A stretch of DNA of 62,509 nucleotides, counting the filler, from Dugesia japonica (Eukaryota): the NCBI GenBank assembly GCA_001938525.1. It is 5 parts of 5 records of this genome, joined end to end, with 100 filler letters (N's around TTAATTAATTAA, not from the genome) between each part and the next. Parts side by side here need not be neighbours in the genome. Positions count along the whole stretch, not along the records: positions 1 to 17,913 come from MQRL01611271.1; 4 more parts are not named here. One strand, written 5' to 3'. This document shows, one piece after another, positions 1 through 48,000 of this stretch. The translations under genes and the position numbers were made by a program. The notes below the pieces were generated by a model. The model had not been told where the DNA came from and did no database searches. It was given only the letters and a program-made list of their open reading frames with translations. Numbering within the stretch: the stretch's first letter is position 1; each line of letters opens with the position of its first letter.

Positions 1-70
1 AAATTTGGCTGGTTGCCAAAAGTGGGCTGAAAATTTGGCTGATTGCCAAAAGTGGGCTGAAAATTTGGCC
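1..70. repeat. 30-bp tandem repeat (~2.3 copies), followed by a GC-rich hairpin at ~77-102
   Basis: AAATTTGGCTG(G/A)TTGCCAAAAGTGGGCTGA repeats at 1, 31 and 61. GAGCCTACCCCC-GG-GGGGGTGGGTTC can fold. Truncated by the window start. Confidence 0.7.
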
Positions 71-912
71 GTCGCCGAGCCTACCCCCGGGGGGGTGGGT
101 TCTGCCCAGCGCCATGCAAGTGGGCTGATGCGCCACTATCCCCCTACTAATATCTTCTGTATAATAACTTATGATTTAATTTTTTTTGATATCATGATCT
201 TGCAATTGTTTCATGCCTGCAATTCAAACGGTCCTTAAATATTCGCAAGTAGACATATTTTCCTGTCGGCAATAAAAGCACATTAATTATTGGACTTACT
301 TTGGCCGTTTTTGTGCGATATAATTTAATTAACTCTTCTTTAATTCAATCATAATTTGATATATTATTTCTAAAATTTGGAATTGATCTTAATTCTAGCC
401 TTGCATTTTCTTCTAAACTGTTCATCATTTTTTCAGATGTTTCTGTTGGGTTAGTTATGTTTTGATCTGTAAAAAACTTCTCTATCTCCGATATATGATT
501 ATGGATATTTTCATTTATCTGGAGTTGCTTGTGTAAATTCGTATTTCCTTGAAGGAATTTGAGAAAATCTTCTAAAACTACTCTTGTTTTATAACTAAAA
601 GGAACTAGATACACAAAATATATTTAAAAAAAGCCGATTACAATTAGTTCGACTAAACAACATCTATTTCTACATTAAGTATAAGCATTAACACCAGTTG
701 GAATATTTGTAGATGTATTATCACGATGTGGTGCAAATAAATTAAGTAGTGAAGGTATTTTGAAATTTCTCTTTAGTTTTCTTAAAAATAATGTTTCTAT
801 ATTATTGAAGTCAAATTTAAATTTGAAATGCGCCTAACTAGTTCACAATTGAATACTCAGAATGAATTTTACATCTAAATTTATGGAATCTGCTAAATCT
901 TTCATATCGATG

Positions 913-1635
913 GAAATATTAGTAGTATTGACAGAACATATTAGTAGTATTGACCGAAAATATTAGTAGTATTGACAGAAAATATTAGTAGTATTGACAG
1001 AACATATTAGTAGTATTGACCGAAAATATTAGTAGTATTGACAGAACATATTAGTAGTATTGACAGAAAATATTAGTATTATTGACAGAAAATATTAGTA
1101 TTATTGACAGAAAATATTAGTAGTATTGACAGAACATATTAGTAGTATTGACAGAACATATTAGTAGTATTGACCGAAAATATTAGTAGTATTGACAGAA
1201 ATATTAGTAGTATTGACAGAACATATTAGTAGTATTGACAGAACATATTAGTAGTATTGACAGAACATATTANNNNNNNNNNNNNNNNNNNNNNNNNNNN
1301 NNNNNNNNNNNNNNNNNNNNNNATATTAGTAGTATTGACAGAACATATTAGTAGTATTGACCGAAAATATTAGTAGTATTGACAGAAAATATTAGTAGTA
1401 TTGACAGAACATATTAGTAGTATTGACNNNNNNNNNNNNNNNNNNNNNNNNNNNNNNNNNNNNNNNNNNNNNNNNNNNNNNNNNNNNNNNNNNNGAAAAT
1501 ATTAGTAGTATTGACAGAAAATATTAGTAGTATTGACAGAACATATTAGTAGTATTGACAGAAAATATTAGTAGTATTGACAGAAAATATTAGTAGTATT
1601 GACAGAACATATTAGTAGTATTGACAGAAAATATT
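913..1635. repeat. 22-bp minisatellite
   Basis: Head-to-tail ATATTAGTAGTATTGAC(A/C)GAA(C/A) units with no unique spacers; two N gaps inside. Confidence 0.95.
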
Positions 1636-4600
1636 TCGAAAACATTAAAACAATAATTAACTTAATGTTGAAATTTTTTATTTAGGAATTTAATAAATTT
1701 AATTAACTGACTGAATTACATTGAATTTCAATTTAATAAATTTGACATGTGGAATATTCAGCCAACATCGTCGAATAAACGAGCATAATTTTCCAACAGC
1801 AGTACATTGTAAGATCTTCACAAAGACTCGTCTATCTAATAATGTTATCGATGTTTTCCTGTTTTTAATTTATTTATATATTAGATTGAACTATTTATAT
1901 TTTATACTATTATTATAACTATAGTTTTTCTTAACAGATAATTCTCTAGGAAAAACAGAAATCAAAACAAATACGTCATAAAACAATGATGAGAAATAAT
2001 TATTTTGAAAGATTCTCGAGAAGTCTCTGTTTCTAACTATTCTATGTTCATAATGGTAGTAAATAAGATGTTTGTTAAATATAATCAGAATTTCGTCAAA
2101 TATTTCTCCAAAACAAATTCTCGGAAATGTTAATAAAAAAAATTATTTATTCTTTATTTAAATAATTTTAATACAAATTTATAAATTTTTATTTAATTTG
2201 AAATATACAGGTGGCATTATTTGAAAGGGGAACCATGGCAACAATGAGAGTAATCTTCTTTAAAATAACTTTATTTCATAACATCGCTCTTCATACTGTT
2301 ACACCACCTTGCTGCCATTTAATTGACATTCAGTTTATCTCTTAATAACAGTTAACAAAGTCGTATAAGAAAATGTTATTGAAATTTTAATTTGATGATT
2401 CATGAATCAGTAGTACTGATACAAGAATGTTGTAGACGTTAATAATTGAATATAACTGAGTTGACGATACGAAAGATTTTCACGATTTTTCTAAAAAGTT
2501 ACCAAACCTTTCGCAATGTTTTCTTATTAAATACTTCGCAATTGAGCAAGATAGAAATAAATACAATAATCTTATTGTAATATTTTACATCTAGCTACTC
2601 TTTAGTTATATTCCTGCTTGTCAAAAGGTTTTGTTGTGATTTTTCTTTCCCGGTGGTAGTGTGTGTGTCTTGTTGTTTTCCCGTAATTCAGAGAATAATT
2701 CAATGAACTCCATTTTCATTAATAGAACAGAAAGAATGATAGTATCATTGTATCTCTATATTTATTGGATAGAACCGATTTATAGAAGGAAATGAACTAG
2801 AATTGTTTGTTACAATAGCGGATCGATAAAGAGCATTTCACAAAACATTTGTAACAATTTAATTTGATTCGATAGTCATTTCTTGACAGTTCTTCTTCCA
2901 TTCAAATAATTCTCGGATAAACCCTTCCATCACCAGTAAGTTATACTTCGATAAAAGCAGTTTGACACAAGCAAATTAACTGATTACATTTTACCAGCAA
3001 TATAATCCAAAGACAATTTATTTTCAATTAAACTATTAATTGAAAATTAGTAAACGATTATTTTTGTAAATATTATTTACATTAGAGAAATTTATGACAT
3101 AAAATAACACCAAATAGAATCAATCTCACAATTAAAATTATTCAATGTTTTATTGGCTAAAATTTTTTGAAATTATTCCATCTTTCATGAAATTATGAAA
3201 TTAAAATAAGTAATTACAGTTGCTTAATTTTTCCAACTTTCACCAATTCAATAATGTTAGTTCTCATCTAGCTCTCATCTAGTTCAATATTAGTTATCAT
3301 AATATGTTTACGAGAAAAGTTGGTTTTATTTTACCAGTAATAATTTTTTATTGTTTTTTTATAATTTCAGATNNNNNNNNNNNNNNNNNNNNNNNNNNNN
3401 NNNNNNNNNNNNNNNNNNNNNNNNNNNNNNNNNNNNNNNNNNNNNNNNNNNNNNNNNNNNNNNNNNNNNNNNNNNNNNNNNNNNNNNNNNNNNNNNNNNN
3501 NNNNNNNNNNNNNNNNNNNNNNNNNNNNNNNNNNNNNNNNNNNNNNNNNNNNNNNNNNNNNNNNNNGATAAGGCTTCGATCAAAACAAAACAAAATTTAT
3601 TTGTAAAACAAGTTCAAATTTTTGACAATAGTCTTCTTCAAATATCAAAAAGCTTATTGAAAAATGTTTAGAAAAATCCCAGATTGTTTGATAATTACCA
3701 ATCAAATAGTGCGAAAATTACAATTAAAACAAAGTAGGGCCGCAAATCTTGATTGGTAAATGTTTTTTAAAAAGAAAATGTTTATTTAATTAAAGAACAC
3801 TTGTGATTGTCCTAACCGGCCCTCTTTTATAGAAATTTAATGAAAATTACTGAAAATTTACTTGTTAAAAAATATTTACTTATAGGTTTTTATGTAGCAA
3901 TTTTAAGTTAAATATAGGATTTTTATGGATTTATATAATCTAATAAACCTGTTAAACTCCACACGTGATAAACTAATGTACATACAAAAGCAATATATAG
4001 ACTTCCCTTTTCCAAGCTTTTATGATTTTTTAAAGAAAAGTTCCACTTTGAATATTTTACCAAGTAAATATCCACGGACTTTTCTCTTTGGTTATTTTAT
4101 AATAAAATTATACAAAGACTAACCTATCTTAAACAACACACCATAACTATGCATTTAATACAAATAATCTACGATAAATAAGTAAATAATTCAAATATTA
4201 CACTTGTACTGTGAAAATAGTACATCGGTACTATGTGAATATTATATAAATAAAATGAAGAGTTTTAACGTACATTTAATTAAAAGATTAAGATATATGA
4301 TTTTGGTACCATGGATAATAATTGCATTCCTATGGTAATACGACTTTAATAATTTATTTGAAAATTTATATTATATTCATAAATCTGTCTTACAATACAA
4401 ATGCATCATAACTACAATTATGGTGCATTTGAATGGTAATATTATCACCATAATTACATTTATGATAATATGAATTAAAATTAGTAATATAAAATTATAA
4501 AATTTAGCAATCAAAATTTTTATTCATTGTTAAATTTTATATTACTATTTTTAATTTTATATTGTAATAAATGTATAAATGGTATATTTGAAATTTCAAA

Positions 4601-4763
4601 ATGGTGAGAATTTATTATTTCTTTTATTAGTCAATTAAATTTTAAATAAAAATTGTTTTTTAAAGTTAATTTTATTGAAATTTAAATAAATCTATTAAAA
4701 TATGGTTAAAGTTTCCTTTATTATATGGTTAATGTTGTTTAAACGTTCCATTATTATATAGTC

Positions 4764-4946
4764 TGTTAGGTAAATCTTCAATTGATAATTAGTTTTCCAA
4801 TGCACAACTAATATTTTTAACATCATTTTATTTCACTTCTACAAAACATGTTTGATAAGATAATTATAAGTGATTACAATTAATTAAATATTAATATTCA
4901 ATTTAATTGATTTCTATTAAATGAAATTAATAATTATTTCCTTATA
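4764..4946 (-). repeat. 3' LTR of Ty3/Gypsy element, copy 1
   Basis: Homologous to 20533-20723. On the minus strand it follows a polypurine tract (AAGAAGGGG) downstream of integrase, begins TATAAGG and ends ...CCTAACA. Confidence 0.7.
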
Positions 4947-6785
4947 AGCCCCTTCTTAAGAAACTTTCTATGTTTTTACACATTTCTTTCAAATCGCTAT
5001 CCATTTTCCCCTTGTATCGCACATCTGATTTCGTAAATTTTCTCAATTATCCGATAAGGTCCTTCAAATCTGTCTTGACTTTTATTTCTTGTTTCTACAT
5101 TGATGAGTTACAAAATCACCTTTTTTGAATTCTCTGTAAGTTATCATGCCAGAAGTGTTATTTTAAGGATATCTGAAACGTCTGACTCAAACTACTTTTC
5201 CCTGCAGATTTTCTTCCAAAATAAGATCTCATAGGGCTCTTTCTAGTCGTCTGCTTACTTGTTGCGTTCAGTGTAAATTTTATTTCCGGTAAAGATTTAC
5301 ACAATATGTTGTCTTTTGTTATTGAAGTGTTGCATTAATTAAAATTCGAATTGTCTTGAACTGTCTTTCAATTTTTCCGTTTGAATTGCGATGATAGCCT
5401 CTAAAAAAGCAAGGTTTAATAACTAGCTTCAGTGCAAACACTTTTATAACTCTGGATTCAAAAGCTTTTCCACAATCTAATCTTATCTCTCTTGGACATC
5501 CAAATCTCAGTGTCCCCTTTTCAAAAATAGCTTTTCGTACTGTTTCTTCGTTTTATCTAGAAAATGGAATAATAAATGGTATAATATTTACTGTACTGGT
5601 CGATTATTTCAAGAATATAATTTTTCCGTCCACTTGTTTCTAATATTGGCCCACGTATATATGTGAATATCACTAAAGAATCAATTGGTAGCTTCTAATC
5701 TTTTTGTCTTCTCTTTAGTTGCTGTCGTTCTATTTTGGTCTTGTGACAAATTTCACAACTAGGAACTATCTTCTAAATTTGGTTCTACAGGTTCTTCACA
5801 ATATATGTGTATTTCATATATTCGTAGACGTTTTCAATTTCTACATGACATAATAATTTGCGTATTTCTTCTATTGTCTCATGTATTTTGTCATCCGGAA
5901 TTTAGATTTTCTTGATCAAATCTGTTTCCTCAGAAATGCTTAAATGATCTTCTTTTTCCTTTTCAATTATGTTCAGTATTCTCGTTTTTATCGTCTCTTT
6001 CTTGACATCTTCATGTGAAATTTTACATTGTACACATACTTCGTATCTTAATCTAGATAACATATATGTATTAATATATTGATTTCCTTTCCCATATTCC
6101 AAATCATGTCTAAACTACTCAGATAATTAATATATGTCTGAAATTGTGACGTAATTGGTTTCTTCATCGTCATCATGAAGGTTGGCTTTATGATCTGTTC
6201 TAATTGTAAATTTTCTAACGTACAAGTAAGATTTGAAATGCATAAAGAAATACTAAACAGCCAATATTTCCTTTTGTGTAATGCAATATCCCTTTTTAAA
6301 ACTCGTTATTGAGTTTTATATGCAACAAATCTTTCTCTTCTTTCTTTATCTCTCTGTGACAATAATGCTCCGATTGTATCAAAACTGGCTTCAGTATCTA
6401 ATATAAATTCTCTGTTTATATCTGGAAAACACAATATTGGTGTAGTCATTAAAGATTTCTTTAGACCCTCAAAAGTATCTTATTTTCCATCTGTCCATTT
6501 TAATTTCTTATTGCTTGGTCTGCTACACAACTGCTCTAAGATTCTTAATTTTCTTGCGTGGTTTTCTTTAAACTTTCTGTAATAATTACAAATTCCCAAG
6601 AAACTTCGCAGCTTCTTCACACAGTTAGGTTTGGCGTATGTTCTTATTGCTTCTATTTTAGACGGATCAGTTCTAAAACCGTCCCTGATAAGTATGTGTC
6701 CAAGAAATTTGATTTTGCTTTGAAAAAACTGACACTTTTCGCGATTAATTCTTAAACCAGCCTTCATTATTTCCATCAATAATAC
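4947..6785 (-). mobile_element. Ty3/Gypsy pol remnant (RT C-terminus, RNase H, integrase), degraded
   Basis: GLRINREKCQFFQSKIKFLGH...KKLRSFLGICNYYRKF (RT); FILDTEASFDTIGA and FTIRTDHK (RNase H); integrase region homologous to 20990-21427. Many stops. Confidence 0.9.
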
Positions 6786-7041
6786 TGTTGGAGTCCCAAC
6801 TGAGTTAAGTGGAAAGGTTTGTGGCTGGGGAAAAACAGCCCTCAGGGAGACCCGTTCAAGAATTTGACCTACCGCCCCTAGGGTAGGTTTTCAGTTCATA
6901 GCGGTTGACCCCTTCTCTTAATGGGAGGTACGCACCTATAAACCTTTATATTCGGGTTCATTGTTTTCCCTATCGTTACTAACTCAAGAAAGAAATTACG
7001 ATTCTGATTGCATACATTTTATTTGAAGAAAAAAAAAATTA

Positions 7042-7425
7042 TTATAGTAAATCCAGTGCCCCTGGATCCAACCGCTGGTTTGGTTCAGTCACCAAGAAGT
7101 TTAAGGCGGGGGTGTCATCATCGTCGTCCCATTGCGCCACTGTTGGGTTGCCTATTTGTCAGGATAGATCGGCAATGTATTATTTCAAGAACTCGATCTT
7201 CCTCAGTAACAATTGCTTATTTTTGGCTTCCAAGGCCTTTGTTTGAACTACAAGGTCATTCTGCTTTTTTACAATTATAACTAATTTCTTAATCAGTCTG
7301 TCCTTCTGCGACAATTGTTTAAGTAAGGTTCGGTCTATCTTACGTTTTAAATGCCTTTCGATAAGCAGTCGGCGCATGATGCGATGGCACCGACGAAGAC
7401 TGGTCGGAAAATTGATGTGTGGCAC
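7042..7425 (-). pseudogene. Insertion cassette 4: ~127-aa basic/coiled-coil ORF with two premature stops
   Basis: The frame continues past the TAA at 7180 as *YIADLS*QIGNPTVAQWDDDDDTPALNFLVTEPNQRLDPGALDLL*. Preceded by TTTTAG acceptor; followed by AATAAA (7018-7023). Confidence 0.5.
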
Positions 7426-7562
7426 TAAAATAAATTAAAGTTAATTCTCAAATAAAATTTACACAATGACTGAGATGAATACCCACACAATGAAAAACAA
7501 TGAAAAGAAAATCCATAATAAGGTTCAAACACAAGGTTTATTAACAAAAAATAGTGTGTGGA

Positions 7563-7921
7563 TTAACTCTTAGGGGTCTGTGTGCTTTTCTCGAACATCA
7601 AGTGTTCGAGCGGCATGGAAGCCTTCAACTTCAAAACATCCCCTACCAGTTTATTTTCTCGGTCTTGGTAGGACCGGATCATGTCAACTAGTGACTCCAC
7701 TTGCCCCTTCCACACTCTTTCTTGGGCATGGGAGGCCTCGACTTCCTTTCTGAAAGCCAAACATTTTTTTCGGTAGAAGCTTACCTTACTATTAGCGTTG
7801 GATGTATCCGCCTCCTACTTACATTTAGCGAGACGATAAAGATCCCACGTCATCTCGCGGTCCTCGCTGTCCTCTCGCACCTTTTTTGTAGGAGCCGAAA
7901 TACGATTCAGTGAAGAGTGCA
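7563..7921 (-). pseudogene. Insertion cassette 3: coiled-coil ORF with one stop and one frameshift
   Basis: HSSLNRISAPTKKVREDSEDREMTWDLYRLAKCK*...LAFRKEVEASHAQERVWKGQVESLVDMIRSYQDRENKL. Acceptor TATTTAG at 7922-7928; AATAAA at 7537-7542. Confidence 0.5.
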
Positions 7922-8087
7922 CTAAATATTATTATGGTTAAATATGATAATTACAAGGGCTATTGGATTAATATTAAGAAAACGAAAGATCATCTCATGC
8001 AACAAAAGAAATATAATGCAAGAATACCAAACTTTTATTTATTTATTTCTTTTTTATTTATAATTTATTTCAAGCAACAGACAAAAT

Positions 8088-8441
8088 TTAGGTAGTAGGA
8101 TTAATATTGTTGATAGTAGGGGCCGTATTCTCACTGTCGATGACACCAGACGGTTCCCTAATTCCCCACACGAGGTTAGTTATAAACGCCTGTACAGCAG
8201 GAGCTGGGGGTAGGGTGGGTGCCTGGTAGAAGGAGGTTGCAAGAGTGCGATCTGGGCCTGTCCAATTCTGATATCGCTGCCTCTCACCAAAATCTCTTAT
8301 CCGAGAGATAATTGACTCTACTGGAGGTAAGTTAGTCCTATCGACTAAGATTCCAGCATCAAGATTGTGGGGATTATGATGCCGGCACAAAATGAGTTGT
8401 CGGGTTTTCCTATTCACGATTCTTTCCCAGATGGACTCCAT
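8088..8441 (-). CDS. Insertion cassette 2: intact 117-aa unknown protein
   Basis: ATG-to-TAA ORF, GC-richer than its flanks. Acceptor TTTATAG lies 1 nt before the ATG; AATAAA at 8034-8058. Confidence 0.55.
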   Translation of the reverse strand: MESIWERIVNRKTRQLILCRHHNPHNLDAGILVDRTNLPPVESIISRIRDFGERQRYQNWTGPDRTLATSFYQAPTLPPAPAVQAFITNLVWGIREPSGVIDSENTAPTINNINPTT

Positions 8442-8592
8442 TCTATAAATAATAGGAATTCTAATATGCAGTTTCCTTTAAATTAATCAATAGTAAATGA
8501 AATACACATCAAAATAGAACGAAACAACTTGAATTTTTTATTTTTATACACCAAAGGCTATTAACCTCTTACACTCTTATGTTAAGCGGTGT

Positions 8593-8775
8593 CTATTCCC
8601 CATCTAAACCTACGGATATCAATAGAGGAAACATTTCCGCAAAACACTGGAGATCGGTTTCATCCGGGTGTTCAATCCGCCCCTTGGTTAATAGGTGGGA
8701 AATCAACTGTTTTAGTCGCGTAGATCGTCGTTGTTGCCTAATTCATTTGAGCGTATGATGCAACTCGTCTGGCAT
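8593..8775 (-). pseudogene. Insertion cassette 1: 60-aa ORF with one internal TGA
   Basis: MPDELHHTLK*IRQQRRSTRLKQLISHLLTKGRIEHPDETDLQCFAEMFPLLISVGLDGE*. Acceptor TTTTTTTAG ends at 8779; AATAAA at 8537-8542. Confidence 0.4.
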
Positions 8776-11239
8776 GAACTAAAAAAATGAATTATAAGTC
8801 TCAGACAAATGATTCCGAGTCCTGCACAACTACTTTACCCCCCGGTCATGTCTGCTTAAGATAGCACCCCATCCATCCGTACTGTATCGTTCACCAAATA
8901 ATTTTAGCTTAAACTCATGGGTAGTGAAGGGGAATGATGTGCAACATTCGTCATACTGAGGATAATGAGTTTTATTTATTTTTGAAGGATGACGATCTAT
9001 ACACTTCGACAAGTATACTGAACATAATAATAATAATACTAAGGGTAATGAAGATGATTTTAATATGATTAATAGTAAACCCATAATATCAATCATTAAT
9101 GATAATTCTAATAAAGTAAGAGTTGATACTAACGATAACAATGATATTGACTCTAATAATGTAGTATTAATCATAATAACAATAATCATAATATTACTAG
9201 CAATGTTATCCACTATGAGAGTGGAAATAGCATTAGTAACAATAATATCAATGATACTAAAGATTTTACTACTAGTGATGTCACTGGTACGATAATAAGA
9301 GTGATGATTTTAATAGTAATACTATGATAACTATAACTGTATTACTACTAACAATAATAATACTAATGTGAATAAAACTGATGTTAATAATAATAGGAAT
9401 ATCAATAGTACTTTTAATATTAGGATTGTAAATAATAAATTAAGAGAACCGCAATTCTATCAATTATGATGAATTTAAATTTCTTCTGGAGTTATATAAT
9501 TCGATTTTCCGTATTTTGCTGTTACCTAGAAACATCCTATGGTGATATGATTATGATAACTTCCTTTGAGTTGGTATGGAAGTATAATGTTCCGTTGTAG
9601 GTGTTTGGCCGAAGCGAACCCGGAATGACAGTATTATATAACTACTCACTCATCAGAGTATGCACACTCTAACCGATAATGCAATTCATGATCCAATCTA
9701 TACACCAACTACAACTCATGAGCGAAATGGGTTAACTTGGTATTGCTGGAAAATTTATCAATTAGGGAATTACTCATTGATTTAAACTCTCTATCCATGC
9801 CTAGTGGAANNNNNNNNNNTTTAGACATATCAATGGATTTTTCATTTCTAGATTTTACAAGTAATTTGTTGTTTTTGTTAAATAAACGATTAAAATTACA
9901 ATGTATTTTCTCTTTTAATTCTTGAATGTGGGAGCTATGATCATAAAATTAAACCGATCTGTTTATCAGTGTTGGTACAGATTTCTGTATTCTTAATTAT
10001 AAAAGGTTTAGTTCAAAAATCAAAATATTTTGTAACTACTTATTCAATTTACGGAGAGATCGAGTGGGAACTACCTAAAAAATATATTTTATTATTTAAA
10101 AAAAGGCGTTGCATCTAAATTTTATCACTTAATAAATTTACGTGAAAAATTAACATCAAGATTTTCATATATAAGAATTTATTACCATAAATAATATGTA
10201 AATTTACCANATAAAAACATTTATCATAAACAGAATAATATTTTACTTCTTGTTGGTACTAAAAGATTTCTGCAACGGGTTTTTTGTGAATAGTTAATTG
10301 ACTTGGCAATTCCTGGTTTTTCACCTGGGGTTTGATATTCCTTTATTTTCCTTTTTCTGGTAGAAAGAGAAATTAACCACAACACAATTAGGTATTTAAA
10401 TTACTGTAGTTCTCCGATATTTCACGACAAATTGGTGCGCGATAATTAATTAATAAGTTTCGTTTGAGGATTGAACAATTAATTTTCTTGACAATTCGTT
10501 AATTTTGATGATTCGCAATTAAATTTTCACTGATTATTTCACGTACGTGAATATGCAAAATTTTTTGTGTTTTTTCTGTTAAAGTCAGGGGTTTTTTTAT
10601 ACGATTTCTGAGACACCCCGACTTGTCTGGCATTGGCCAGTTATTTTTAATTTGGCTAATTTGAATTTTATTGGATCTGGTGCCAATCTTCCAAGAATTT
10701 TGGAGTTCTGATCGATAGTTATTTTTAGACTGGCACATGATAACTGTGTCTTTGTTTTACTTTTACTTTTAGATATCTGATTGGTTTGACCTTGTGGACT
10801 CTACAACAACCCTCTGGAAGGTGGTAGGTTTTTTCTATTTAGCAATTCTGATGCATCTTGTTGCTCCTTTTTCATATTCTCTTGTCCGGGTTCTTTTCAA
10901 CTTTCTTGACCGAAGTTATCTGGTTAAAACAGATTTTTAACTAATTTCGCTTCTTTTTATTTTTAAAATTAATTAATTTTCATTTGTTAATTAATTATTT
11001 TCCATATCGCTTTTCTTAATTGTTGATTATTAATTTAATAATTTTTCTTAATTTCCAATCGTAAATTGCTTTTATGTTACCCGGTTCTTCATATTCATCG
11101 TTGATTTTATTTNNNNNNNNNCTAATGGTGATTACATGCTTTATATTTCATTATTGGTAACTTTAGTGTTTCTGCTATTCTTTTCCGTTGATTTGGCTTC
11201 TCGGCCTTATTCCCGTTTAGCGGGTAATTCACCCCAACA

Positions 11240-11900
11240 ATACTCTGTCGATTACTTCAAAGTGTTGATCTTTATTTTTCGTAAATATTGGAATGTCATC
11301 AAGATAAACCATGACTCCATTGATTCCGCCAACCACTTTTTTTGTGATCTACTCTTGAAATGTACCTGGTACCACTGCAATGCCAAATGACATTCTATTA
11401 AAACAATATTGTCCATGTTTCGTTGAAAACGCCGTTTTTTCTTGAGCTCTACATGATAGTACACATTTCTCAAATCTATTGAACTGAAATATTTGGCTTC
11501 ATCAAACTTGTCCAACATTTCATCGACATTAGGCATCGGGAAGGCTTGTCTTTTCGCTACTGCATTCAATTGTCTAAAATCCAAACATATTCTGATGTTT
11601 TTCTTTTCCTCTTTCCAAACACAGATCAGTAGGTGATCCATGGTGAGTTGCATTTCCGGATAATAATATTCTCGAAAAGGTTTTAGATAGCTTCTTTTCA
11701 ATTTTAGATTCTAAATTCATTGGTTGACTATACGGTTTTACGTTGATTGGTTCACCACTTGTGATTATTTTGTGTCTTATCAGATGTGTACGCCCTACAT
11801 CCAATTTATCTTCCCTAAAAGCATCTTCTTTACTTTCAATTATTTTTATAATCATTGATCCTCTTTAATCTTCAAAATGTTTAAAGCTCTTCAATCGTTC
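11240..11900 (-). mobile_element. Ty3/Gypsy reverse transcriptase N-terminal part (continuation of copy 1)
   Basis: HKIITSGEPINVKPY and IRICLDFRQLNAVAKRQAFPMPNVDEMLDKFDEAKYFSSIDL are Gypsy RT motifs; frameshifted. Confidence 0.92.
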
Positions 11901-12496
11901 TTCTTTTTTAATTTGTCTCCAAAATTTCGCTTAAATATTACAAATGTAATTTGTAACTTTTTCATCCGCTTTGCTATCAACCTTTCGCATAAGCTGATAT
12001 CCAAAGTAACTTCTTTGCAAACTTAATCAATTTTCACTCCAGTTCTAACTAACTAAAATCTTTTTTAAACAGTTTATTTCCAAGAATTTAACTTTAAAAA
12101 AATTAATTGAATCATTTCGAAGCTTTTAAAATTTATTTTAACAGAAAAATTTTTAAAAATTCTTAATAAACAAGGCACTTACTAAACTTAAATTATCACT
12201 TAGAAAAACATAAAAAACTTTTAACAAATTGTTTAAATATGAATTAAATTTGACCTTCTAGCTGTTTTTGTATTTTTGAAAAAATATTTGTGAATAAATT
12301 TTGACATTATAAATTTATTTAGATGTAAATTAAATTATTAATTAAAATTTCGTAACATCGTAAAATTGAATTAGTTTACAACTCTTCAGGTTAGGTCTGA
12401 GTGAATTTAGCTAGTTACAAATGAGGTCATAAAACTTTTCAATTTTTATTATTTCATTGATTTTCAGTGATTTTCAATTATATATTAATTCTATAG

Positions 12497-15400
12497 AATC
12501 TGATAGTGATGAAGATATTGAATATAAATTTAAAATTGAATTTCTAGAAATGGAAGATGTGAATATTATTAATTCAATAAATATGCTAGATAAATATTTT
12601 AAATTAGAAAGATTCATATCGCCCTTTACATCATGCATGTCGTTATGGTCGAGTTAAATTTGCAAAATTATTAATATCTTATCATTGTGATATTCATTCA
12701 TGCACAAAAGTACTTTCTGTTTTAAATATTATGAATAAATATTGAAATAGAATGGTTTTCAACCAATACATTTGGCCTGTGAGAATGGTCATATTGATAT
12801 TGTTAAACTATTGATTGAAAATAATTGCTTTATTAATGCGTCTGACAAAGTAATTTATTTGTTTTTAATGTAATTTTTGAATAAATCCTAATTTAGCTAG
12901 GATATCAACCGATACATTTAGCATGCATGTCTGGACATATTGATATTGTTAAACTATTGATCTTACACAAATCTAATATTAATAAAAAAGATAAAATCGT
13001 AAATATTTTTATTACTAAATCAATAATATTAATTCAGTATGGATATCAACCAATACATTTAGCATGTATGCATGGTCATGTTGATATTGTAAAACTATTG
13101 ATTGCAAACAAATGTAATATCAATGCTTCTCTTTATGTATTTTATTCGTTATTTTCTAAATAATCTGTGGATAATTATTAATTCAGTGTGGATATCAACC
13201 GATTCATTTGGCATGTACGAATGGTCATATTGATGTTGTGAAAGAATTGATTTTAAATAATTGCGTTATTGATAAAAAAGATAAAATTGTAATTTGTTAT
13301 TTGTTTAATAATTAATAAGTAAATATTGATTTAGTTTGGATATCAATCGATACATTTGGCATGTATGAATTGTCATATTGAGGTTGTGAAAATATTGATC
13401 GATAACAAATGTGATATCAATGCATCTGATCAAATTGTAATCTGTTATTTACTAAATAATTTAAGAATAAATATTGAATTAGTATGCATGTAGACCGATA
13501 CATTTGGCATGTATGAANNNNNNNNNNNNNNNNNNNNNNNNNNNNNNNGATAATGATTGCGATATAAATGTATTGTCAAAAGTATTTTGTCAATGTAAAT
13601 TATATGAAATATAATAATCAATCTCTGCAGTATCAAGAATCACCAATCGATATTGCAATACAAAATGGACATGATGAAATTATTCGTATTTTAAATATTT
13701 CAAATGTAAATGTTAATTTTATTTTCTCATCAATTATTATGAAACAATTNNNNNNNNNNNNNNNNNNNNNNNNNNNNNNNNNNNNGAAGATTCTTGAAGA
13801 AGATAATATTCGACAATTCGGATAATCGCAAAAAAATAACAAAACAACATTTTCATCAAAACATTTAATTTAATATTAACTGTTTAATTTTCCAGCAATT
13901 ATTCTCACAATAGTTCTAAAAAACCGCGTAAAACAAGTAACAAATGTGCTGCGTTATTTGATATTTTTGGATTATTAAGAATTTCGATATTAGAAAATAA
14001 ATATTTATTTTNATTAACTACAATTTATAGATTCGAACACTTGCTAAAGCGATGGATTTACAATGCGGAGTTAATTGCGATCATAAATTTTGTTTAAGGA
14101 GTTAGATTTTATATTTGTATTTTCATTTGATTTATATAAATTATTTTATTAATGATTTTCAATTAATTGCGATATTTTAGCTATGGAAAATGACAAACTT
14201 AAAAAGGGTGAACGTATTGGATCAGGATCATTTGGAAAGGTCTATAAATATAAAATATCAAATACAAATCGTGAAATTGTTATCAAGAAAATAATATATT
14301 TTCGTGAAGATAAAAAAAATATTGAAGGAAATATAAATAAGTTTTCATCTCAAATAATTCATAGAAATATTGTTAGACATTTTGGAGTTTTGGAAAAATC
14401 TGGGAAGTTTTACATATTTATGGAGTACATTTCGGGGGTGATTTTGTTTATTTTGAATAATTTTTTATTAAATCTATTTCAGGGCTCCCTTAAAGATTTA
14501 ATTGATAATTTAGACGAGAGAAATCAATCGATAGAATATTCGAAAGTCATAAAATTTAGTAAACAAATATTAAAAGCTCTCGAATTCATTCATTCTCAAG
14601 GAATTATTCACAGAGATATCAAACGTAATTAATTGATTTGATTAATCGATTGATTGATTGATAATTTGTTGTTATTCAGCTGCAAATATATTGCTGGATC
14701 GTGATGAAACATTGAAATTAGCAGATTTTGGTTTAAGCACTTCATTGCGTATTGAATCGATGTATGAAACAAATGGAAAAGCTGAAACATTTTGTGGTAC
14801 TCCGAATTATTTGGCTCCAGAGATTGTATTTGGTGAACCGTATGATTTTCCAGTTGATATTTGGTCCACTGGAGCATCGATTATCCATATGATAACAGGT
14901 TGTTTGCATTGATTAATTGAATTAATTATATAAAACTGTTTTATTTGTTATCTGAACAATAAACTAGCATCTTTGTTACAATGTTTTCCCCTGTAAAATC
15001 TTTATTTATAAATAATCTTTTACATTCTTAAAATAAACTTCAATCTCTTCATTTCCACATTTGTAATTAATCGAATTTTGTAAATCTTTGACAGCATCTT
15101 TCTCTTTCTCGAATGCCAAACATAAACGAACCTGAAACTCTTCAACATTTTTCACCGTCTTCCCATATTCTTCCTGCAAATCTTCATCTAACAAACAATA
15201 AATTAATATCTCTTGTTGTTTCTGCTGAGTAATAGCTTTAGCATGAAAATATAATTCACAACGCTTGCAATGTTATTTCATCTAGAGAATACATTTGGTA
15301 ATAACATATCGATCCACAGAGATTTCCTATAAATGTTGATTAAATTACCTCTTTTATCATTTTTCAACATGCCTAGTAAGAGGATGTCTCATTTTAATTA

Positions 15401-16822
15401 ATTGTTATTGCTGGAAATACAGGAGATCATATCTTATCAAGATCATTTATTAGTCCAAGTGAGCTTGACAATTATTTATTTATTTATATTATTATTAAAT
15501 AGCAAAATCAACCAACAAAATTATTCGAAACTTGGCTCCATGATTTATTATGACAAAAAGATATTAATAAAATCTTATAAAATCTCTGTCACATTAATAC
15601 ACACAATGTCAATCAATATGATTTCAACACAACTTTATATAATAAATTTTATATTACAGTGTGTTCTCTTGTACAGATTCTCATTGAATAATTAAACCAG
15701 TGATACTCATCGATCGATACCATTGTGATAGAGGTATAATATAATATTAGATTACAAGTACAGAAACTGCACGATGGTAATGCTTGACAAGTCAAATAAT
15801 TAAACAGTATTACATAATATTTGTTGCTACAATATGTAACCAAAACAGTTGCACTCTAGATGATGAAGTGGAAGTTACCTGTGCGAAGTGTAAAATATTG
15901 AAAATATAATAATATTTTGCATTACTAGAAAATCAGTTTTGAATCATATGCGAGCTGCTAAATGAAATTCTTAATCTGCTATCTTAAAATAATCAAATCA
16001 ATAAAGAATTGCATTGTAATAACACATGTGTGTGCTGTGTGTATGTGTAAGACGATAACAAATTATTATCAGCACATTTCCATGTTTATTTGGAATGCTC
16101 AATAATGTTTACATGAATTCAAATCTATTCTTTGTATTGAAAATTATATTTATTTACATTATGTATTTATTTCGATCATCAAATCTATCTTAGCTGTAAA
16201 CATAGTAAAAATTTCAATTCAAATGAGAAATAAAAATTTTTGATTATCACAAAATGAAATTAGGGCAAACAGATAATTCTAACAGAAATATTTTCTATCT
16301 ATTTTTTGTGAAGAAATAAAACAAACATAAGCGATGAGAAATTTCGAGATTCAAAAACCGAATTTTGATTTCTATCAATCAACTTTTGTATATAAAAATT
16401 ATTAAAATGCTGTTTTCATTCATATTTAGCCATTTATTTTAATTTTTAATATAAAGAAATTAGAACATTACAATTTTTTAATTGTTTTGTTTAAAATTAT
16501 TAAAAATATTTTTATTAAGATTGTATTATAATTTTAGAAATTATTATAATTTACAGAAATTAATTAAAAATTAATGATTAAATTGTTCAATTCAATTTTC
16601 CAATAATAAATATCATCTTATTATTCAGGGAAAATGCCGTATTATCAATTACGACCTGAAGCGGCCATGTTTAATATTGGAATAACAAAGAAAATCGAAT
16701 ACACACCTTGTCAACCAATCTCAGAAATAATGCAATCATTTATTGATGATTTGTTGACACCAGACCAATCAAATCGCCCCACTGCAAAATCTTTATTAAA
16801 ACATCGAATTTTCTATTTGTAG
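12497..16822 (+). CDS. Multi-exon ankyrin-repeat (>=8) plus Ser/Thr protein kinase (STE/MAP3K-like); 5' start not resolved
   Basis: Ankyrin exons of ~99-102 nt (e.g. 12751-12849 NGFQPIHLACENGHIDIVKLLIENNCFINASDK) separated by ~40-50 nt GT-AG introns. Kinase exons ~14181-14437, 14483-14625, 14680-14898 and 16630-16822 give GSGSFG, HRDIKPAN, DFG, GTPNYLAPE, DIWSTG and RPTAKSLLKH. Confidence 0.88.
15000..15300 (-). mobile_element. Possible Gypsy gag-like remnant inside the last kinase intron
   Basis: Degraded helical ORF (DEDLQEEYGKTVKNVEEFQVRLCLAFEKEKD) in an intron about 35-fold longer than the other introns of the gene. Confidence 0.35.
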
Positions 16823-17912
16823 TAATTCTCGAATAAAAATTTATTTGTTCAAACATTAAGAAAGTGGAACATAATCATAACAAATTTGTGAAATGTTGTA
16901 AAACTGAAATAAAACTATTATTAGCGATTACCCTGAGAATAAATGAAAAAGTAAATTTATATATAATGAAAACACGTTGGAATTTAAATTTGTTTGAATT
17001 TACAAGGTCATTTATGAATAAATTACTGGAATTTTTCGAAATTTGTATTTTTCAAATAACTTAATATTAGTGAGTTATCGAAATCGAATTAGATAGATAG
17101 TGGCTCACTGTATCACTTCTTCCTTTCATCAGCAATTTCAATCGGACCATGCATATAAAGATTTAAAATTTAAAAGACATGCTGCCATTATTTTTAAATT
17201 TTGTATTTATACCATTTAATAGAGAAATAAAAACTATATATTCATGCTTTCCTAATCGTTTAAAACGGTTTTTAGTCTAAAGTAGATAGATGGTAGGGAA
17301 CTGGACCGCCTTCCCCCGGGTTATAATATAATACTATAGGAAACCCAATATGAATATAAAATCATAATGAAAATCAGATTTCAAAGTTTTTTATACCAAA
17401 CTGCTGAGAATTTTACGGTGATCATTTTTTACAAATAAAAATTTTTCGAAATTTTTTTCCTTCTCAAATATGTCAGCAAAGCATTTATTCGATAGAGAAT
17501 TTTTTGCTGATTCCAAATATGTTAACCTAAAAGCGTCAAAGTTAATACTCGATGAAATGAATGGATTTTTGTGATGAAATTAGGTCAAAATTCAGATCTT
17601 TGAGTTCAGAACTCTGAGATCAGAGCACGGATATTGATTCGAATTTGGTCTTATTTTAATCAGAAGAAAAAAATGACTGTGTAAAGTTAAAATATCGTCT
17701 AGCTAAAAATGCTTCCTGACAAAGATATACAGCTGACCTCCCGGAGTTGGTGATATTTTTCGAAAATATCAAAAGTACCTCAGAATTTATCGAAATTTAT
17801 ACTATTTGATAGGGAAATTTACGGTGAGTAGGAAGAACATAGTTAGAAATCAAGAAATCTTATACATAAAAAGTTATAGAGAAACAAATACTTTATTTGG
17901 GAGTCTCCGAGG

Positions 17913-18013
17913 ANNNNNNNNNNNNNNNNNNNNNNNNNNNNNNNNNNNNNNNNNNNNTTAATTAATTAANNNNNNNNNNNNNNNNNNNNNNNNNNNNNNN
18001 NNNNNNNNNNNNN
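17913..18013. other. Artificial contig linker (N-TTAATTAATTAA-N)
   Basis: Six-frame-stop 12-mer between N runs, identical at four places. Confidence 0.95.
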
Positions 18014-20532: not shown

Positions 20533-22320
20533 TGTTAGGTAAATCTTCAATTGGTAATTCATTTTCTAAATCACAACAAATATTTTTAGACATAATTTAT
20601 TTCACGACTANAACACATGTTTGATAAGATAAATATGATTAAAAATGTGATTACAATTAATTAAATATTAATATTCAGTTTAATCGATTTCTATTAGATG
20701 AAATTAATAATTATTTCCCCATATCCCCCTTATTAAGTTTTTCCACATTTCTTTTTAATCGCTGTCCATTTTCTCCTTGTACCGCGTACCGTCTTTCGTG
20801 AATTTTCTCAATTATTCGATTAGGTTCTTCAAATCTGTCTTGACTTTTTTTCTTGATTCTACCTTGATGAGTGCAAAATCGCCCACTTTAAATTCTCTTT
20901 TAGTAATCACGTTTGAAATGTTTTCTTTAGTTCTATTTGAAACGTCTGACTCACCACTTTTCTCTGCTAATTTTCTTTCTAAATTTTCATCAACCCAATA
21001 AAACCATCTCAGCCGGACTCTTTCCAGTCGTCTTCTGCATTGTTGCGTTCATTGTAACTTCTTTTTCAGGTAAAATATCTGCCCAATCTGTTGTCTTTCT
21101 TTCCTGAAGTGTTCCATTAATCGAATCTTGAATTGTTCTGAACTGTCTTTCAATTTGTTTGATTGAATTTTGATGATTAGGACTCGAAAAGCAAAGTTTA
21201 TTATTTAGCTTCAGTGCAAACTCTCTCATAACTCTGGATTCAAAAGCTTTCCCACAATTTAATCTTATCTCTCTTGGACATTTAAATCTCAATATACACT
21301 TTTTAGCATTTCGTATTGTTTCCTCGTCTTGTTTAGACAATGCTATAAGAACCAGATATTTACTGTAATGGTCGATTATTCCAAGAATATATTTTTTCCG
21401 CACACCTTTTCCTGCATTGGCCCACATATATCTGTAAATATGACTGCAAACAATTTGGTAGCTTCTAATCTTTTTGTCTTCTATTTAGTTGCGGTCTTCA
21501 CTACTTTTGTCTTCTGAAAAATTTCACAACTACGAACTATCTTCTGTATTTGACCCCACAAATTATTCGCAATATATTTGTTTCTCATATATTTGTACAC
21601 CTTTTCAACTCCTCCATAGCATAATAATTTATGTATTTTTTCTATTGTCTCATGTATTTTATTATCCGGAATTTTTATTTTCTTGTTTAAATCTGTTTCC
21701 TCAGAAATTTTTAATTGCTCTCCTCTTTTCTTTTCAATTATATTTAGTACTCTTGTTTTAATTTTTGCATTTCCAAGAAACTTTAAGAAACTTACACTTT
21801 TTGGGAATAATTCCTAAATCAGCCTTCATTATTTTCATCAATACTCTGTCAATTACTTCATAGTGTTCTTCTTTATTGTTCGTAAATATTAGACTGTCGT
21901 CAGGATATACCATGGCTGCATTGATTCCGTCTACCACTTTTTTATCATCATCTCCTGAAATGTACCTGGTGCGCTGCGATGCCAAATTAATTTCTATTAA
22001 AACAATATTGTCCGTGCTTGGTTGAGATTCTTCTTCGAGCCCTACCTGATAGGGCTCTATTCCAAATCTATTGAACTGAAATATTTGGTTATATCTAACC
22101 TTTACAATTGCAATTATTGCGAGAATAATTTTTGGACATAATCATTGATCGTTTTATAGAATTCATTTAATATAAAAGCTTTGATCAAAGTCAATTCCTG
22201 ACGAAGACAAGGTCAAAATATCGAATTGTTATCAAATATCAATATAAAAAACAAAAAAAAAATTTTGATAAAAGCTTTTATATTAAAGGGATACATCTAA
22301 CTTGTCCATCATTTCATTTA
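20533..22320 (-). mobile_element. Ty3/Gypsy element copy 2 (3' LTR 20533-20723, integrase, internally deleted RT/RNase H)
   Basis: KYILGIIDHYSKYL...CPREIRLNCGKAFES...QIERQFRTI (integrase) and VYPDDSLIF (degenerate YxDD). Colinear with 4764-6785 plus 11240-11520. Confidence 0.9.
22101..22290. mobile_element. Penelope-like pLTR fragment with inverted segment and hammerhead (22192-22228, + strand, G12A), inserted in the Gypsy RT
   Basis: caattc-CTGACGA-A-GAC-aag-GTC-AAAA-TA-TC-gaattg. Inverted arms TTTAATATAAAAGCTTT / AAAGCTTTTATATTAAA. ATCTAAC occurs on both flanks. Confidence 0.7.
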
Positions 22321-43600: not shown

Positions 43601-44485
43601 AATTTCAGAAGATAAATTATTATGTCCAGATTTTACAGCTGAAATTAATAATGTTAACTTTTCAAATAATGCTATTGGATTTCCTGGCTTTATGGTTTTA
43701 GCTCCTTGTCCACTTTTTGTTGCCCTTGTGGTTGTTGGTATTTTCTTAGTTTTTTGTGTGGATAAAAAATCACCTTCTTCTGATTCACTATTTAATTTAA
43801 TATGTTCAGAATCAGATTTAGGGTGTTCTGATTCTGATTCTGCTTCTAGTTTAGTTATTTTTTCTTTTTTTGTTCTTTTAGGTTTTTCTTTTTCAATATC
43901 TACTTTTCTAAATTTTTTCTTTAATTTATTAACATAATCACAATTAGTAGGAATTGGAGCTATAAATTTTAAATAAACCTCAATTTCTTCAGGTGTTTCT
44001 TTTTTATCTAAATTTCCTAAAATCATTCTAAATATTCCATCGGAGTATGGAATAACTTCTGATTTAAATAAGAAATAATTATCACCATCTTCTCCGTCAG
44101 AGAATAAATGAATTTTATTTCCTTTTAGATTTATTTCCATAAAACTTTTTATTTTATCGATAGAAGCAATATCTAATTTAGAAAATTTAGGAATAATTGT
44201 TTGAGTTAATTTTCCAGTGGTATTAATATTTTCAATTGAATATTCAGGAATAAATGGAATTACATTTTCATTTAAAAAGAATTTTGTTAAATCTCTAGAT
44301 TCTATTATTTGTTCTTTTATTGGTTGTATTGGTTTAGATTTTTTTATTGCAGTGATAGTTGGTTTTTGTAAAATTGATAAGTCACTTTGTAAATTATTAT
44401 AATCAAGAACATTACTACAAAAATAATTATTATATTGTTCTTGAGCTTTAATTAGAGCTTTTAATTCTTTAATTCTTTCTTCCAT
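43601..44485 (-). CDS. Polinton conserved ORF (C-terminal L..L.LL..A..SG.N...EI motif; the GasderminX-type gene of adintoviruses); true end lies in the N gap
   Basis: ALFEKLTLLISAVKSGHNNLSSEI after a charged low-complexity linker and KSGQG. Confidence 0.6.
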
Positions 44486-44497
44486 TTTATATAGATT

Positions 44498-45050
44498 TAA
44501 TTTTGTTCAGTTTCTGTTTGTCCGGAGGCCAGCGAAGCGTTTTCAGTTTCAGATTCAGTTTCTTCATCAACTGTGTTTTCCTTTATGTATGCTATAAGGA
44601 TTAAGATATATTCCATTTCCATGTTGAATTATATGGGTTCCATTTTTAAACTTTTTTGTTAACCCTTTAAATTTAGGATCAATATTTTTTAAATATTTAT
44701 GAATTGCTGAACCTTGATATGGATTTAAAAATATACCTGTTCCTTGTGTTAATTTTTTTGCTTCTACTTGTTTTTGTAATTCAACTAATTCAGTTTCTTT
44801 TTGTATTTTAATAGCATTTCTAGATTCTGTAACAGTTTTTGCAATTCCAGCTGCTAATCCAGATGTAGTTGCTAATCCTGCAATTATTGCTGGAATGGCA
44901 GCTAGAAATGCAAATCCACCTTCTTGCTACGGGTTTAAGTTCATCTTTAACTTTTTTAGAAATATAATAATTTTTACCGTTGATCTTTACAGATTTACAT
45001 TTTTTAGAATTTATAATTTTAATTAGTTCTTCTTCTGTTGCTTCGGTCAT
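44498..45050 (-). pseudogene. pX/core-protein-like ORF, frameshifted
   Basis: After a frameshift at ~44925: EGGFAFLAAIPAIIAGLATTSGLAAGIAK...QGTGIFLNPY, and after a second shift HGNGIYLNPY. Confidence 0.6.
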
Positions 45051-48000
45051 TTATTAATATTATTATTTGAGCAAGGAGTACAGTGATTTATTTTGTCTAA
45101 TCTTAAATGCCATATGTTACATTTTACACAATAATATTTATTTCCATTTGGCCATGTTCTTGTTGCATCATCTTCTATAATTCTTTTATCATCAAATGCT
45201 ATTAATGCTATTTTCTTTTGTTCTACTAATTCAATATTATGACAATCTGATTTTAAAGAATAATTAGTTCCATAAATTATTTTCTTTGGATCATTTAATA
45301 CTAAATCAAAATCTTTCATTAATAATTTATTATTTTTCTTAACACCTTTATTTCTAGAATCAAAACCAATCTCTTTATGGGTCGCTGTGCTTGCTGTGTG
45401 GGCTGCGCTATATGAATAAGCATAAGATTTTGCTTTTATAAAATTACCTTGAGTTATTTCACAATTGGGTTTTTCATCTTTCATTTGAAATAAATTATCT
45501 CCAAGTAGGCTTTCTAATTTTANNANATTATCTCTATGTTTTATTTCAACAAAGATACAATCTGTATTTTTTATTATCAATGGAAATCCACAATTAAATG
45601 TTCCATCTTCAGTTTCAATGTCATATACCCATTCATCAGCTTCTCTTAAAAATTTTACACTTTGAAAATTATATGTAACATCTTTAGGATTTAATTCTCC
45701 AAGTTCAAATTCACCTATAACACTTAAATATGTGCTGCTAAGATAATATGCTTTAGCTAAAGATATTTTATCTGGAAATTTTCTATTTTTAAATTTTAAT
45801 TGTCTAGTAAACATTTCATTNNNNNNNNNNNNNNNNNNNNNNNNNNNNNNNNNNNNNNNNNNNNNNNNNNNNNNNNNNNNNNNNNNNNNNNNNNNNNNNN
45901 NNNNNNNNNNNNNNNNNCCGTGTGTTCTAACTCTATAAATCTTTTTATGAGTTTTGTGTTTTATTACTTTTTTTAGTGGAACCCAATCGCTTTTAGTCCA
46001 AATTTCATAATCTTCTGGATTCGAATAATATTTATTATTATATCTACATAAATCTTTTTAATTATTATTTTATTATTTCTTTTTAGTATTATTGGAGTGT
46101 CAGCTGTTACACTGTCAGTATAATGAATTTTATAGTTATCTTCACCAATTAAAGGTTGCATTTGATTGTAAATAAAATCATACATAACTTGTTTTGCATG
46201 TTCAAGAATAGTAAATCCAATATATGGAAATTTAATATATCTTAATTTACCTTTTATCATATTCATTGCTGCAACAGTGGCTTCATTTGAATCATTTAAT
46301 GAAAAGATTTTACTAGATTTAAATGTTGTTTTAGCTGCAAATCTTTGATAATATTTGTCAGTATCAACAATTTCAATATTACAACGATTTCTAATATTTT
46401 CAAGGGTTTTTCCATAGAATGCATTTAACATTAATTTATAAATATAATCTCCAAATACATCTTTAATTCTTTTAGATTCTTTTCTTAATGCAATTAATTT
46501 ATAAACATAATCTTTAAACCATGGAGATGTTTTCATTTTAATTTTTTTATGAATTTTTATTAGTTTCATACCAATTTTTAAATAGAGATCTAATGTACTT
46601 CCAAGACACACATAATTTTTCTTATCAAATTGATTCAATGTAAGTTTAACATTATCTTTTGACAATTTTCTATTAAAACTTAATTGATAATTACTTAACA
46701 TTTCATTTGTAATATTTATTTTCTCTGGACATAATGGGAAATATTTAGTTCTATCATGTAATTCTTTTGGATAATCAAGATCAACTTCATAAATAAAATT
46801 CATTTTATCAGTTGCTGGTTCATAACACAGTTCGTTGCACTCGTACATTTCACCTGTTGGTAATGGTCTTGTCATGCATGATGCATATAAAGAATTTTCA
46901 TCAATATATTTTATAAATGTTTCTTCTAATAAATCATTAAAATATTCATCTGGAATAAATTCATGTTCATTCATTGTTTTAAGAAGATCTAGATATTGTG
47001 TTTTATTTAATTTTCTAGGATTTGATTTTTCATTATTTGAAAATACTTGACGTTCACCTAGAACACCAGAATAGCCACCTCAAATTCCAGATTCAACTGT
47101 TAAGAACATATCATAAGTTTCAGGTTTAGCATATTTTAAATAATCATTTGCATTTAACATTCAAGTTTCCCATGAATATCCTGGTGCAGAATATGAATAA
47201 CAAGGATCTAATCTAAGAAGATTATTTAAACATGAATTACGAAAGTTTTCTAAGAAATCAGATAATATTAACACATCAAGTTTCATATAATGTAACATAT
47301 AATTCCATAAATTATCAAATTGTGCAAAATCATTATAAAATATTTGATAGTCTTCATCAGATATTTCTTTTTGAGTTAGAGTGTTAAAGAAATCTTTTTT
47401 CTCTGGTATTTTGTTAGATTTTAATAATGTTTNNNNNNNNNNNNNNNNNNNNNNNNNNNNNNNNNNNNNNNNNNNNNNNNNNNNNNNNNNNNNNNNNNNN
47501 NNNNNNNNNNNNNNNNNNNNNNNNNNNNNNNNNNNNNNNNNNNNNNNNNNNNNNNNNNNNNNNNNNNNNNNNNNNNNNNNNNNNNNNNNNNNNNNNNNNN
47601 NNNNNNNNNNNNNNNNNNNNNNNTAATTATCTGATGTGTGTGGAATTATCTTTTTTACTTTTCCTGGAAATTTTGTTAATAATTCTCGGAAAAATAAATG
47701 ATTATCATAACCAGATGCATTATGAAAGTAAAATGGTATAATTAAATTTTTAATACTTTTATCATTTAAATTACATTTATTACATGAATATCCACGAAAT
47801 TTACCTGTGAAATGATTATGGTCTATAACTGGATCTTTTTTAACTTGTCCGTGGGCCAGCTTCGCGATTTTTTTGTTACAATAATAACAATTTTGATTTT
47901 TAAATGCTGGAACTTCTTCGGGTAATTCTAATATTAATTTATTATCTTTAATATCACTTAATTTATTATTAGTGTCATTTAATAATTTAAAGAATTTATC

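Follow-up and report, generated by a model that had tools for sequence, protein, structure and literature searches.

How could several small genes, placed one after another on the same strand, be expressed from within a single mobile element? This question is raised by a region of the genome of the planarian Dugesia japonica (NCBI GenBank assembly GCA_001938525.1), located in the first of the five parts that make up the stretch of 62,509 nucleotides analysed here (hereafter, the window; the parts come from five records and are joined with 100 filler letters, and positions 1 to 17,913 are from MQRL01611271.1). A first-pass annotation, made from the sequence alone, described there an array of four short open reading frames (ORFs), each with its own splice acceptor and poly(A) signal, inside a mobile insertion. 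We found that the insertion is a solo long terminal repeat (LTR) of a Burro-type Gypsy element, and therefore the four genes sit within the LTR itself. The ORFs are almost certainly real and under purifying selection across subfamilies of the element. Their expression probably relies on a leader within the LTR that is joined in cis to any of four alternative last exons, and two of the ORFs would have a start codon split by the junction.

The four cassettes, with the state of their ORFs in this copy, are as follows.

8537..8778, minus strand: cassette 1, with acceptor, ORF1 at 8775-8593 (60 aa, premature stop at 8745) and AATAAA at 8542
8034..8442, minus strand: cassette 2, with acceptor, ORF2 at 8441-8088 (117 aa, open) and an AATAAA cluster at 8069-8039
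7537..7921, minus strand: cassette 3, with AG/TG acceptor (the slash marks the junction), ORF3 running to 7563 (118 full codons, premature stop at 7817) and AATAAA at 7542
7018..7424, minus strand: cassette 4, with AG/TG acceptor, ORF4 running to 7042 (126 full codons, premature stops at 7182 and 7161) and AATAAA at 7023

Exons are predicted to start at 8778, 8442, 7921, and 7424, position 7425 being the G of AG. The guanine-plus-cytosine fraction is 0.43-0.47 in the ORFs versus 0.21-0.26 in the spacers, which have lengths of 150, 166, and 138 nt. The distance from the first A of AATAAA to the end of the next AG is 100, 118, and 118 nt, the second value being for the nearest of the four AATAAA after ORF2 (8069, 8058, 8047, and 8039). 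ATG is found 3 nt past AG in cassette 1 and 1 nt past AG in cassette 2, while cassettes 3 and 4 start with AG/TG. All coordinates of this co-oriented array had been given correctly in the first-pass annotation, as had the damage to three of the four ORFs, and the stated interval of about 95-110 nt between AATAAA and the next AG was measured as about 92-110 nt from motif to motif.

Are these ORFs genes? Other copies were collected by genome searches, in each of which the best 40 candidates were scored, and the copy numbers below are lower bounds. The ratio of nonsynonymous to synonymous substitution rates (dN/dS) was 0.20, 0.14, 0.19, and 0.09 for ORF1 to ORF4 (19, 17, 26, and 32 sequences, respectively), after removal of 3, 2, 6, and 1 mis-anchored or duplicate rows and with synonymous-saturated pairs left out (90 of 171, 101 of 136, 179 of 325, and 286 of 496 pairs); in the other two frames it was 0.73-2.29. 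Variants common to at least three copies comprised 319 synonymous and 86 nonsynonymous changes, and private variants 161 and 326, the pattern to be expected if active lineages are under selection and inserted copies decay. Copies free of stops were present for ORF1 (11 of 21), ORF2 (7 of 17), ORF3 (10 of 30), and ORF4 (12 of 32), and the order 1-2-3-4 is maintained in divergent subfamilies. As separate observations, one locus (L180) has two ORF1-like genes in tandem, and in two others (L023 and L024) cassettes 1 and 2 come after cassette 4. No coding signal was found in any frame of the LTR upstream of 8800; additional ORFs considered at 8830-9309 and, antisense, at 8993-9295 had no selection signal and were rejected.

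The signals flanking the ORFs are conserved too. Among copies anchored by the coding motif only, AGTG stands immediately before the first complete codon in 28 of 29 copies of ORF3 and 27 of 30 of ORF4 (55 of 59 together), and it is kept across 11 (ORF3) and 15 (ORF4) types of spacer end that are less than 70% alike. The A of AG and a T-rich tract are also kept at the acceptors, and cassettes 1 and 2 retain their acceptor despite having their own ATG. After removal of 3, 6, 4, and 0 rows that were mis-anchored, duplicate or of a longer ORF, AATAAA was found past the stop codon in 12 of 18 (ORF1), 9 of 10 (ORF2), 25 of 27 (ORF3), and 26 of 30 (ORF4) copies, 72 of 85 in total. A dN/dS below 1 with conserved AG and AATAAA had been expected in the first-pass annotation if other copies were compared, and the counts agree with it.

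For ORF3 and ORF4, the codons ahead of the first internal Met are under selection (20:5 and 17:7 synonymous to nonsynonymous changes, respectively), and the unspliced upstream frame meets a stop first in 22 of 25 and 21 of 31 copies. The G of TG is retained in 54 of 56 copies, versus majority fractions of 0.42-0.86 at fourfold sites. Taken together, these three properties suggest a Met start codon whose A is supplied from upstream. The exon supplying it would be non-coding, since the AG-to-ATG distance varies independently of frame (1, 2, and 10 nt in cassette 2; 2, 3, and 4 nt in a coiled-coil cassette of the internal region of the element) and the part upstream of 8800 lacks a coding signal.

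The identity of the insertion was established from its ends, its target and its neighbours in other copies.

6786..11239, minus strand: solo LTR of a Burro-type Gypsy element, 4,454 bp, termini TGTTGGGG...CCAACA
11240..11243, minus strand: target-site duplication GTAT, left copy
6782..6785, minus strand: target-site duplication GTAT, right copy
5100..6785, minus strand: older decayed Gypsy pol (end of reverse transcriptase, RNase H, integrase), the target of the LTR, identified by RVT_1 match and translation
11240..11900, minus strand: upstream portion of the reverse transcriptase (RT) of that older Gypsy element, RVT_1 match

The termini TGT...ACA are of the TG...CA type and are accompanied by the short target duplication. 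The sharp ends at 11239 and 6786 are common to tens of genomic copies with unrelated flanks, and the reading frame of the older Gypsy RT is identical on both sides of the LTR. The empty-site joint 6776-11238 is present in three RNA runs (X7, X8, and X11) and in a contig run (X6). In at least 13 loci, the right end runs on into a common primer-binding site (PBS), putatively that of tRNA-Pro; a strict PBS pattern was found at 9 of 44 distinct right ends. The left end is entered through a common purine-rich tract in seven internal-region loci. Because of these two neighbours the insertion is read as a solo LTR with the minus strand as sense, so that the mobile insertion of the first-pass annotation is retained in a refined form, and a DNA transposon with short terminal inverted repeats was ruled out. 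No internal direct repeat was found within the insertion. In one locus (L151), two LTRs adjoin.

Upstream of cassette 1, on the sense strand, are a predicted promoter and the parts of a predicted leader.

10595..10636, minus strand: predicted LTR promoter, CCAAT box (10636) and TATAAAA (10601)
10357..10404, minus strand: putative leader intron, 48 nt, GT-AG, GT retained in 92% of 26 copies
10247..10356, minus strand: predicted non-coding leader exon with the conserved motif CCGTTGCAGAA (10278), ending in A at donor 10246
9650..9800, minus strand: predicted non-coding leader exon with donor A/GTGAGT at 9649

A count by eye found TATAAAA at 10601 in 28 of the 33 copies aligned, frequently with CCAAT 35 nt upstream, and this conserved predicted TATA box supports the single promoter proposed earlier. 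The 48-nt segment 10404-10357 is missing in 2 of 28 covering copies, which belong to different subfamilies (exactly in L055 and within 1 nt in L160), and the simplest reading of the loss is reverse transcription of spliced RNA; the two are among eight larger deletions seen, and a genome pattern search for the intron-less leader found L055 only. The most conserved motif of the leader is CCGTTGCAGAA, and the first donor-like GT past it has A before it at 26 of 29 sites against a background of 34% (30 motif sites including deep subfamilies, one of them without a donor). At 9649, GT was found in 19 of 19 copies, A at position -1 in 18 of 19, and a purine at Kozak position -3 in 19 of 19; when 118 GT sites upstream of cassette 1 were scored, 9649 ranked first and 10404 second. 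An upstream exon ending in A, as postulated in the first-pass annotation, thus has two conserved predicted donors. In 18 of 19 copies, the exon before donor 9649 closes with a stop triplet (9652-9650), and splicing would therefore create an overlapping stop-start; no conserved upstream ORF is evident.

In the model that we favour, transcription would start near 10570 at the TATA promoter of the LTR, and one of the four acceptors would receive a leader of several non-coding exons, whose last base is the A at donor 10246 or 9649. In ORF3 and ORF4, this A and TG would make up the start codon; ORF1 and ORF2 would begin at an ATG of their own. Each cassette would be an alternative last exon terminated at its own AATAAA, and the choice of acceptor together with that of poly(A) site would determine the protein made. 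This would put the cassettes into R/U5, 5' of the primer-binding site; with the cassettes between promoter and primer site, genomic RNA could be made only by read-through of each of the four poly(A) signals. Such read-through would probably occur because the signals work well only with the upstream acceptor used, or because U1 suppresses them; under terminal-exon definition, a poly(A) signal is efficient when the upstream acceptor is used. A more speculative extension, which we regard as possible but doubtful, is that the LTR is a self-contained four-gene unit placed before the primer site. The ladder of poly(A) signals would then make short regulatory mRNAs the default and gate genomic RNA, as an early/late switch run by the element's own basic proteins, and every solo LTR would be a complete cluster able to act in trans.

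Several points weigh against this model. In three oligo-dT or cDNA RNA runs, no junction inside the LTR and no poly(A) read was found and the depth on the cassettes was only 0-3x, a coverage too thin to test the model. The near-absence of cassette RNA fits the silencing of Burro by PIWI, Burro being de-repressed in PIWI-knockdown planarians (PMC8532177, in part), and the exact junctions predicted by the model are testable in existing RNA data from such animals. Pattern searches of the genome gave 0 matches for a processed copy in which 9649 is fused to either cassette 3 or cassette 4, which is weak counter-evidence because such RNAs would be without the primer site. The two ends of the lost 48-nt intron share 3 nt of microhomology (AGA). 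U1 matches donor 10246 less well, and the frequency with which this donor ends in A is inflated by the A-rich run that precedes it; donor 9649 was not found in two deep subfamilies (L148 and the second LTR of L151). Because of other AATAAA within the leader (10347, 10183, and 10093) and a second, weaker TATA-like word near 6950 (kept in 29 of the 45 rows shown of 54, counted by eye), the limits of U3, R, and U5 are not fixed. In addition, the AATAAA after ORF1 is the weakest of the four, and the copies are related, so that counts across them are not independent.

Other ways of expressing the cassettes have to be weighed. The first-pass annotation had likened the array to either a trans-spliced operon or a viral late unit with one leader joined to alternative 3' exons, and the latter branch is the one we favour. 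For the former, a polycistronic RNA would be cut at each AATAAA and a host spliced leader (SL) added at the next AG. Planarians do trans-splice, and the co-oriented cassettes, 138-166 nt apart, are within the limit of 300 bp given for flatworm operon gaps in a passage of PMC12582326; in Macrostomum these gaps peak near 100 bp (PMC8629364, in part). With 3 nt from AG to ATG, the start codon would be in frame with the AUG of a leader, and this distance was found in 15 of 26 cassette-1 copies and in 15 of 18 copies of the BIR cassette. However, the flatworm SLs reported in PMC12582326 end in ATG, and the frame of such an ATG closes after 4 codons in cassette 3 and after 25 codons in cassette 4, one base off the selected N-termini of ORF3 and ORF4. 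Trans-splicing is disfavoured because of this frame, conserved cis donors ending in A are present upstream of the cassettes, and we consider it unlikely as a general explanation; a mixed model with SL used for cassette 1 only is conceivable.

It is also improbable that transcription of the cassettes begins in the 3' LTR, with the splice donor located in the internal leader or in gag and perhaps belonging to a phase-1 coding exon, in the manner of errantivirus env (precedent in part of bioRxiv 10.1101/2023.08.03.551782). Upstream of gag, a strong donor ending in A (AAA/GTAAG) is present in at least 14 loci, and the accessory cassettes of the internal region require some such donor. The exon of this donor, however, bears out-of-frame AUGs within about 35 nt of it, a TATA box is located upstream of the cassettes within the LTR, and the variable phase of AG to ATG speaks against a coding partner exon.

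Splicing would be dispensable if ORF3 and ORF4 started at a genomic GTG or at ATGs in the spacers, from read-through or separate short transcripts. AG/TG can indeed be read as an in-frame GTG, and an in-frame spacer ATG lies 5 codons upstream of cassette 4 in 7 of 31 copies, which counts against the splicing model as well. Conservation of the A of AG and of the T-rich tract, and of acceptors in the two cassettes with their own ATG, makes this explanation quite improbable. That the GC-rich blocks are non-coding and flanked by signals arising by chance in AT-rich DNA is conceivable for a single copy (AATAAA occurs within 80 nt in shuffled spacers at P 0.02-0.17, and no homologs of the ORFs were found). 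Across copies this explanation is contradicted by the conserved AGTG and AATAAA, the frame-specific purifying selection and the invariant junctions across unrelated spacers, and it is hardly credible.

The parent of the solo LTR is a Burro-type, env-bearing Gypsy element, which agrees with the accessory-gene array of a giant retroelement suggested in the first-pass annotation. On one contig (C645809), the order is gag, Bcl-2-like gene, fusion env, protease (PR), dUTPase, RT, RNase H, integrase, and then BIR (E 4e-16). The fusion env (PF24664, E 1e-77) is in frame with the gag and PR pieces, with decay stops present; Bcl-2 (E 0.002), dUTPase (E 0.0005), gag, and PR are matched below Pfam cut-offs, yet Bcl-2 and dUTPase stand in the expected order. 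MATH, ankyrin, and AAA-ATPase domains were not found among 12 ORF pieces scanned, and such extras, like a size of over 30 kb, vary among Burro families. The same domain order is described in part of PMC6431247 for Burro/GYPSM1, giant Gypsy-like elements of planarians viewed as possible proviruses, with Gag, a Bcl-2-like gene, an in-frame fusion env between gag and PR, dUTPase between PR and RT, BIR, and long LTRs. Unlike these, the present element has an internal region of about 16.3 kb (Burro, up to 25 kb), for a whole of about 25 kb as judged from that single contig, and its BIR-RING gene is a separate acceptor-led cassette 3' of pol. Genes within the LTR, splicing, and several poly(A) sites go unmentioned in the text on Burro in that source, as far as it is cited here. 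The accessory ORFs after pol (coiled coil, BIR-RING, coiled coil) share the anatomy of the LTR cassettes, namely stop, AATAAA, spacer, and AG (L145 5088-7930; loci L175-L194), with predicted acceptors conserved and AATAAA after the stop in most. An internal leader of about 1.5 kb following the PBS (L117, L124, L137, and L140) has its own conserved acceptor, two conserved GTAAG donors, GGAAG-rich repeats, and an intron of about 70 nt directly before gag.

LTRs are usually regarded as non-coding control regions, and retroviral mRNAs usually have one common 3' end. The adenovirus major late unit has one promoter, a multi-exon non-coding leader, and alternative acceptors and poly(A) sites, as in the LTR model; adenovirus differs in being a DNA virus whose read-through RNA needs no reverse transcription, and no homology is claimed. 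In the Gypsy-type proviruses of the springer subclade of Drosophila errantiviruses, the start codon of env is likewise assembled at a splice junction, but as AU/G and for one env gene in the internal region (bioRxiv 10.1101/2023.08.03.551782, in part), whereas A/TG is predicted here for two of four non-env LTR genes, each with its own poly(A) signal. The sag gene of mouse mammary tumor virus is an accessory gene within a long LTR made from a spliced mRNA, as is predicted here, but it is a single gene overlapping U3 upstream of the promoter, and the four genes here are downstream of the TATA box (PMC9147501, in part). Foamy virus has a splice donor upstream of the poly(A) signal in its LTR and requires read-through in the 5' LTR, where the poly(A) site is suppressed in a U1-dependent manner; unlike in the present LTR, there is a single poly(A) site and R/U5 holds no coding exons (PMC3694450, in part).

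The literature searched, to which Repbase and the figures and supplements of Grohme 2018 (these may annotate LTR ORFs) did not belong, contained no description of an LTR harbouring several genes that each have a poly(A) site. If true, the placement of four genes under selection between promoter and primer site, with a poly(A) signal for each, would amount to a plan of retroelement expression that is absent from that literature. LTR-borne genes would offer a reason for the very long LTRs of Burro, and the abundant solo LTRs would be potential protein sources.

The four protein families are without a homolog found. Pfam gave only matches below the cut-off, mostly to coiled coils, among them those of ORF3, which is predicted to form a coiled coil. 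ORF4 has a basic N-terminus, a long predicted helix (7-89; mean predicted local distance difference test score, pLDDT, 81) and an acidic-aromatic tail, and its model had no match among viral folds; the model of ORF2 was unusable (pLDDT 49). Searches with ORF4 and ORF2 alignments, covering near lengths only, found no homolog, and ORF1 had no match in PDB (best E 0.48). A representative search with ORF3 gave a single repeat-like match of 33 residues (E 2.6e-4), and the best scores of an atlas search, 0.86 and 0.76, are leads only. Homology between ORF3 and ORF4 was considered and rejected. Judged from composition only, the most likely role of the proteins is in regulating the element, as nucleic-acid-binding or dimerising factors, which is a guess.

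Elsewhere in the window, a 105-aa frame at 26469-26786 (minus strand) has a weak match below the cut-off to the Pfam family Tox-MPTase2 (E 0.002), probably by chance. Tandem arrays are present at 866-1650 (22-bp unit) and 12708-13517 (degenerate, about 147 bp), and a protein kinase exon, probably of a host gene, at 14156-14632 (plus strand). A further Gypsy pol fragment with RT and integrase lies at 20990-22141 (minus strand), and a Polinton-like block at 42323-48665 (minus strand) includes a protein-primed DNA polymerase B (E 9e-15), an Endonuclease VII, and a weakly matched adenoviral-type protease.

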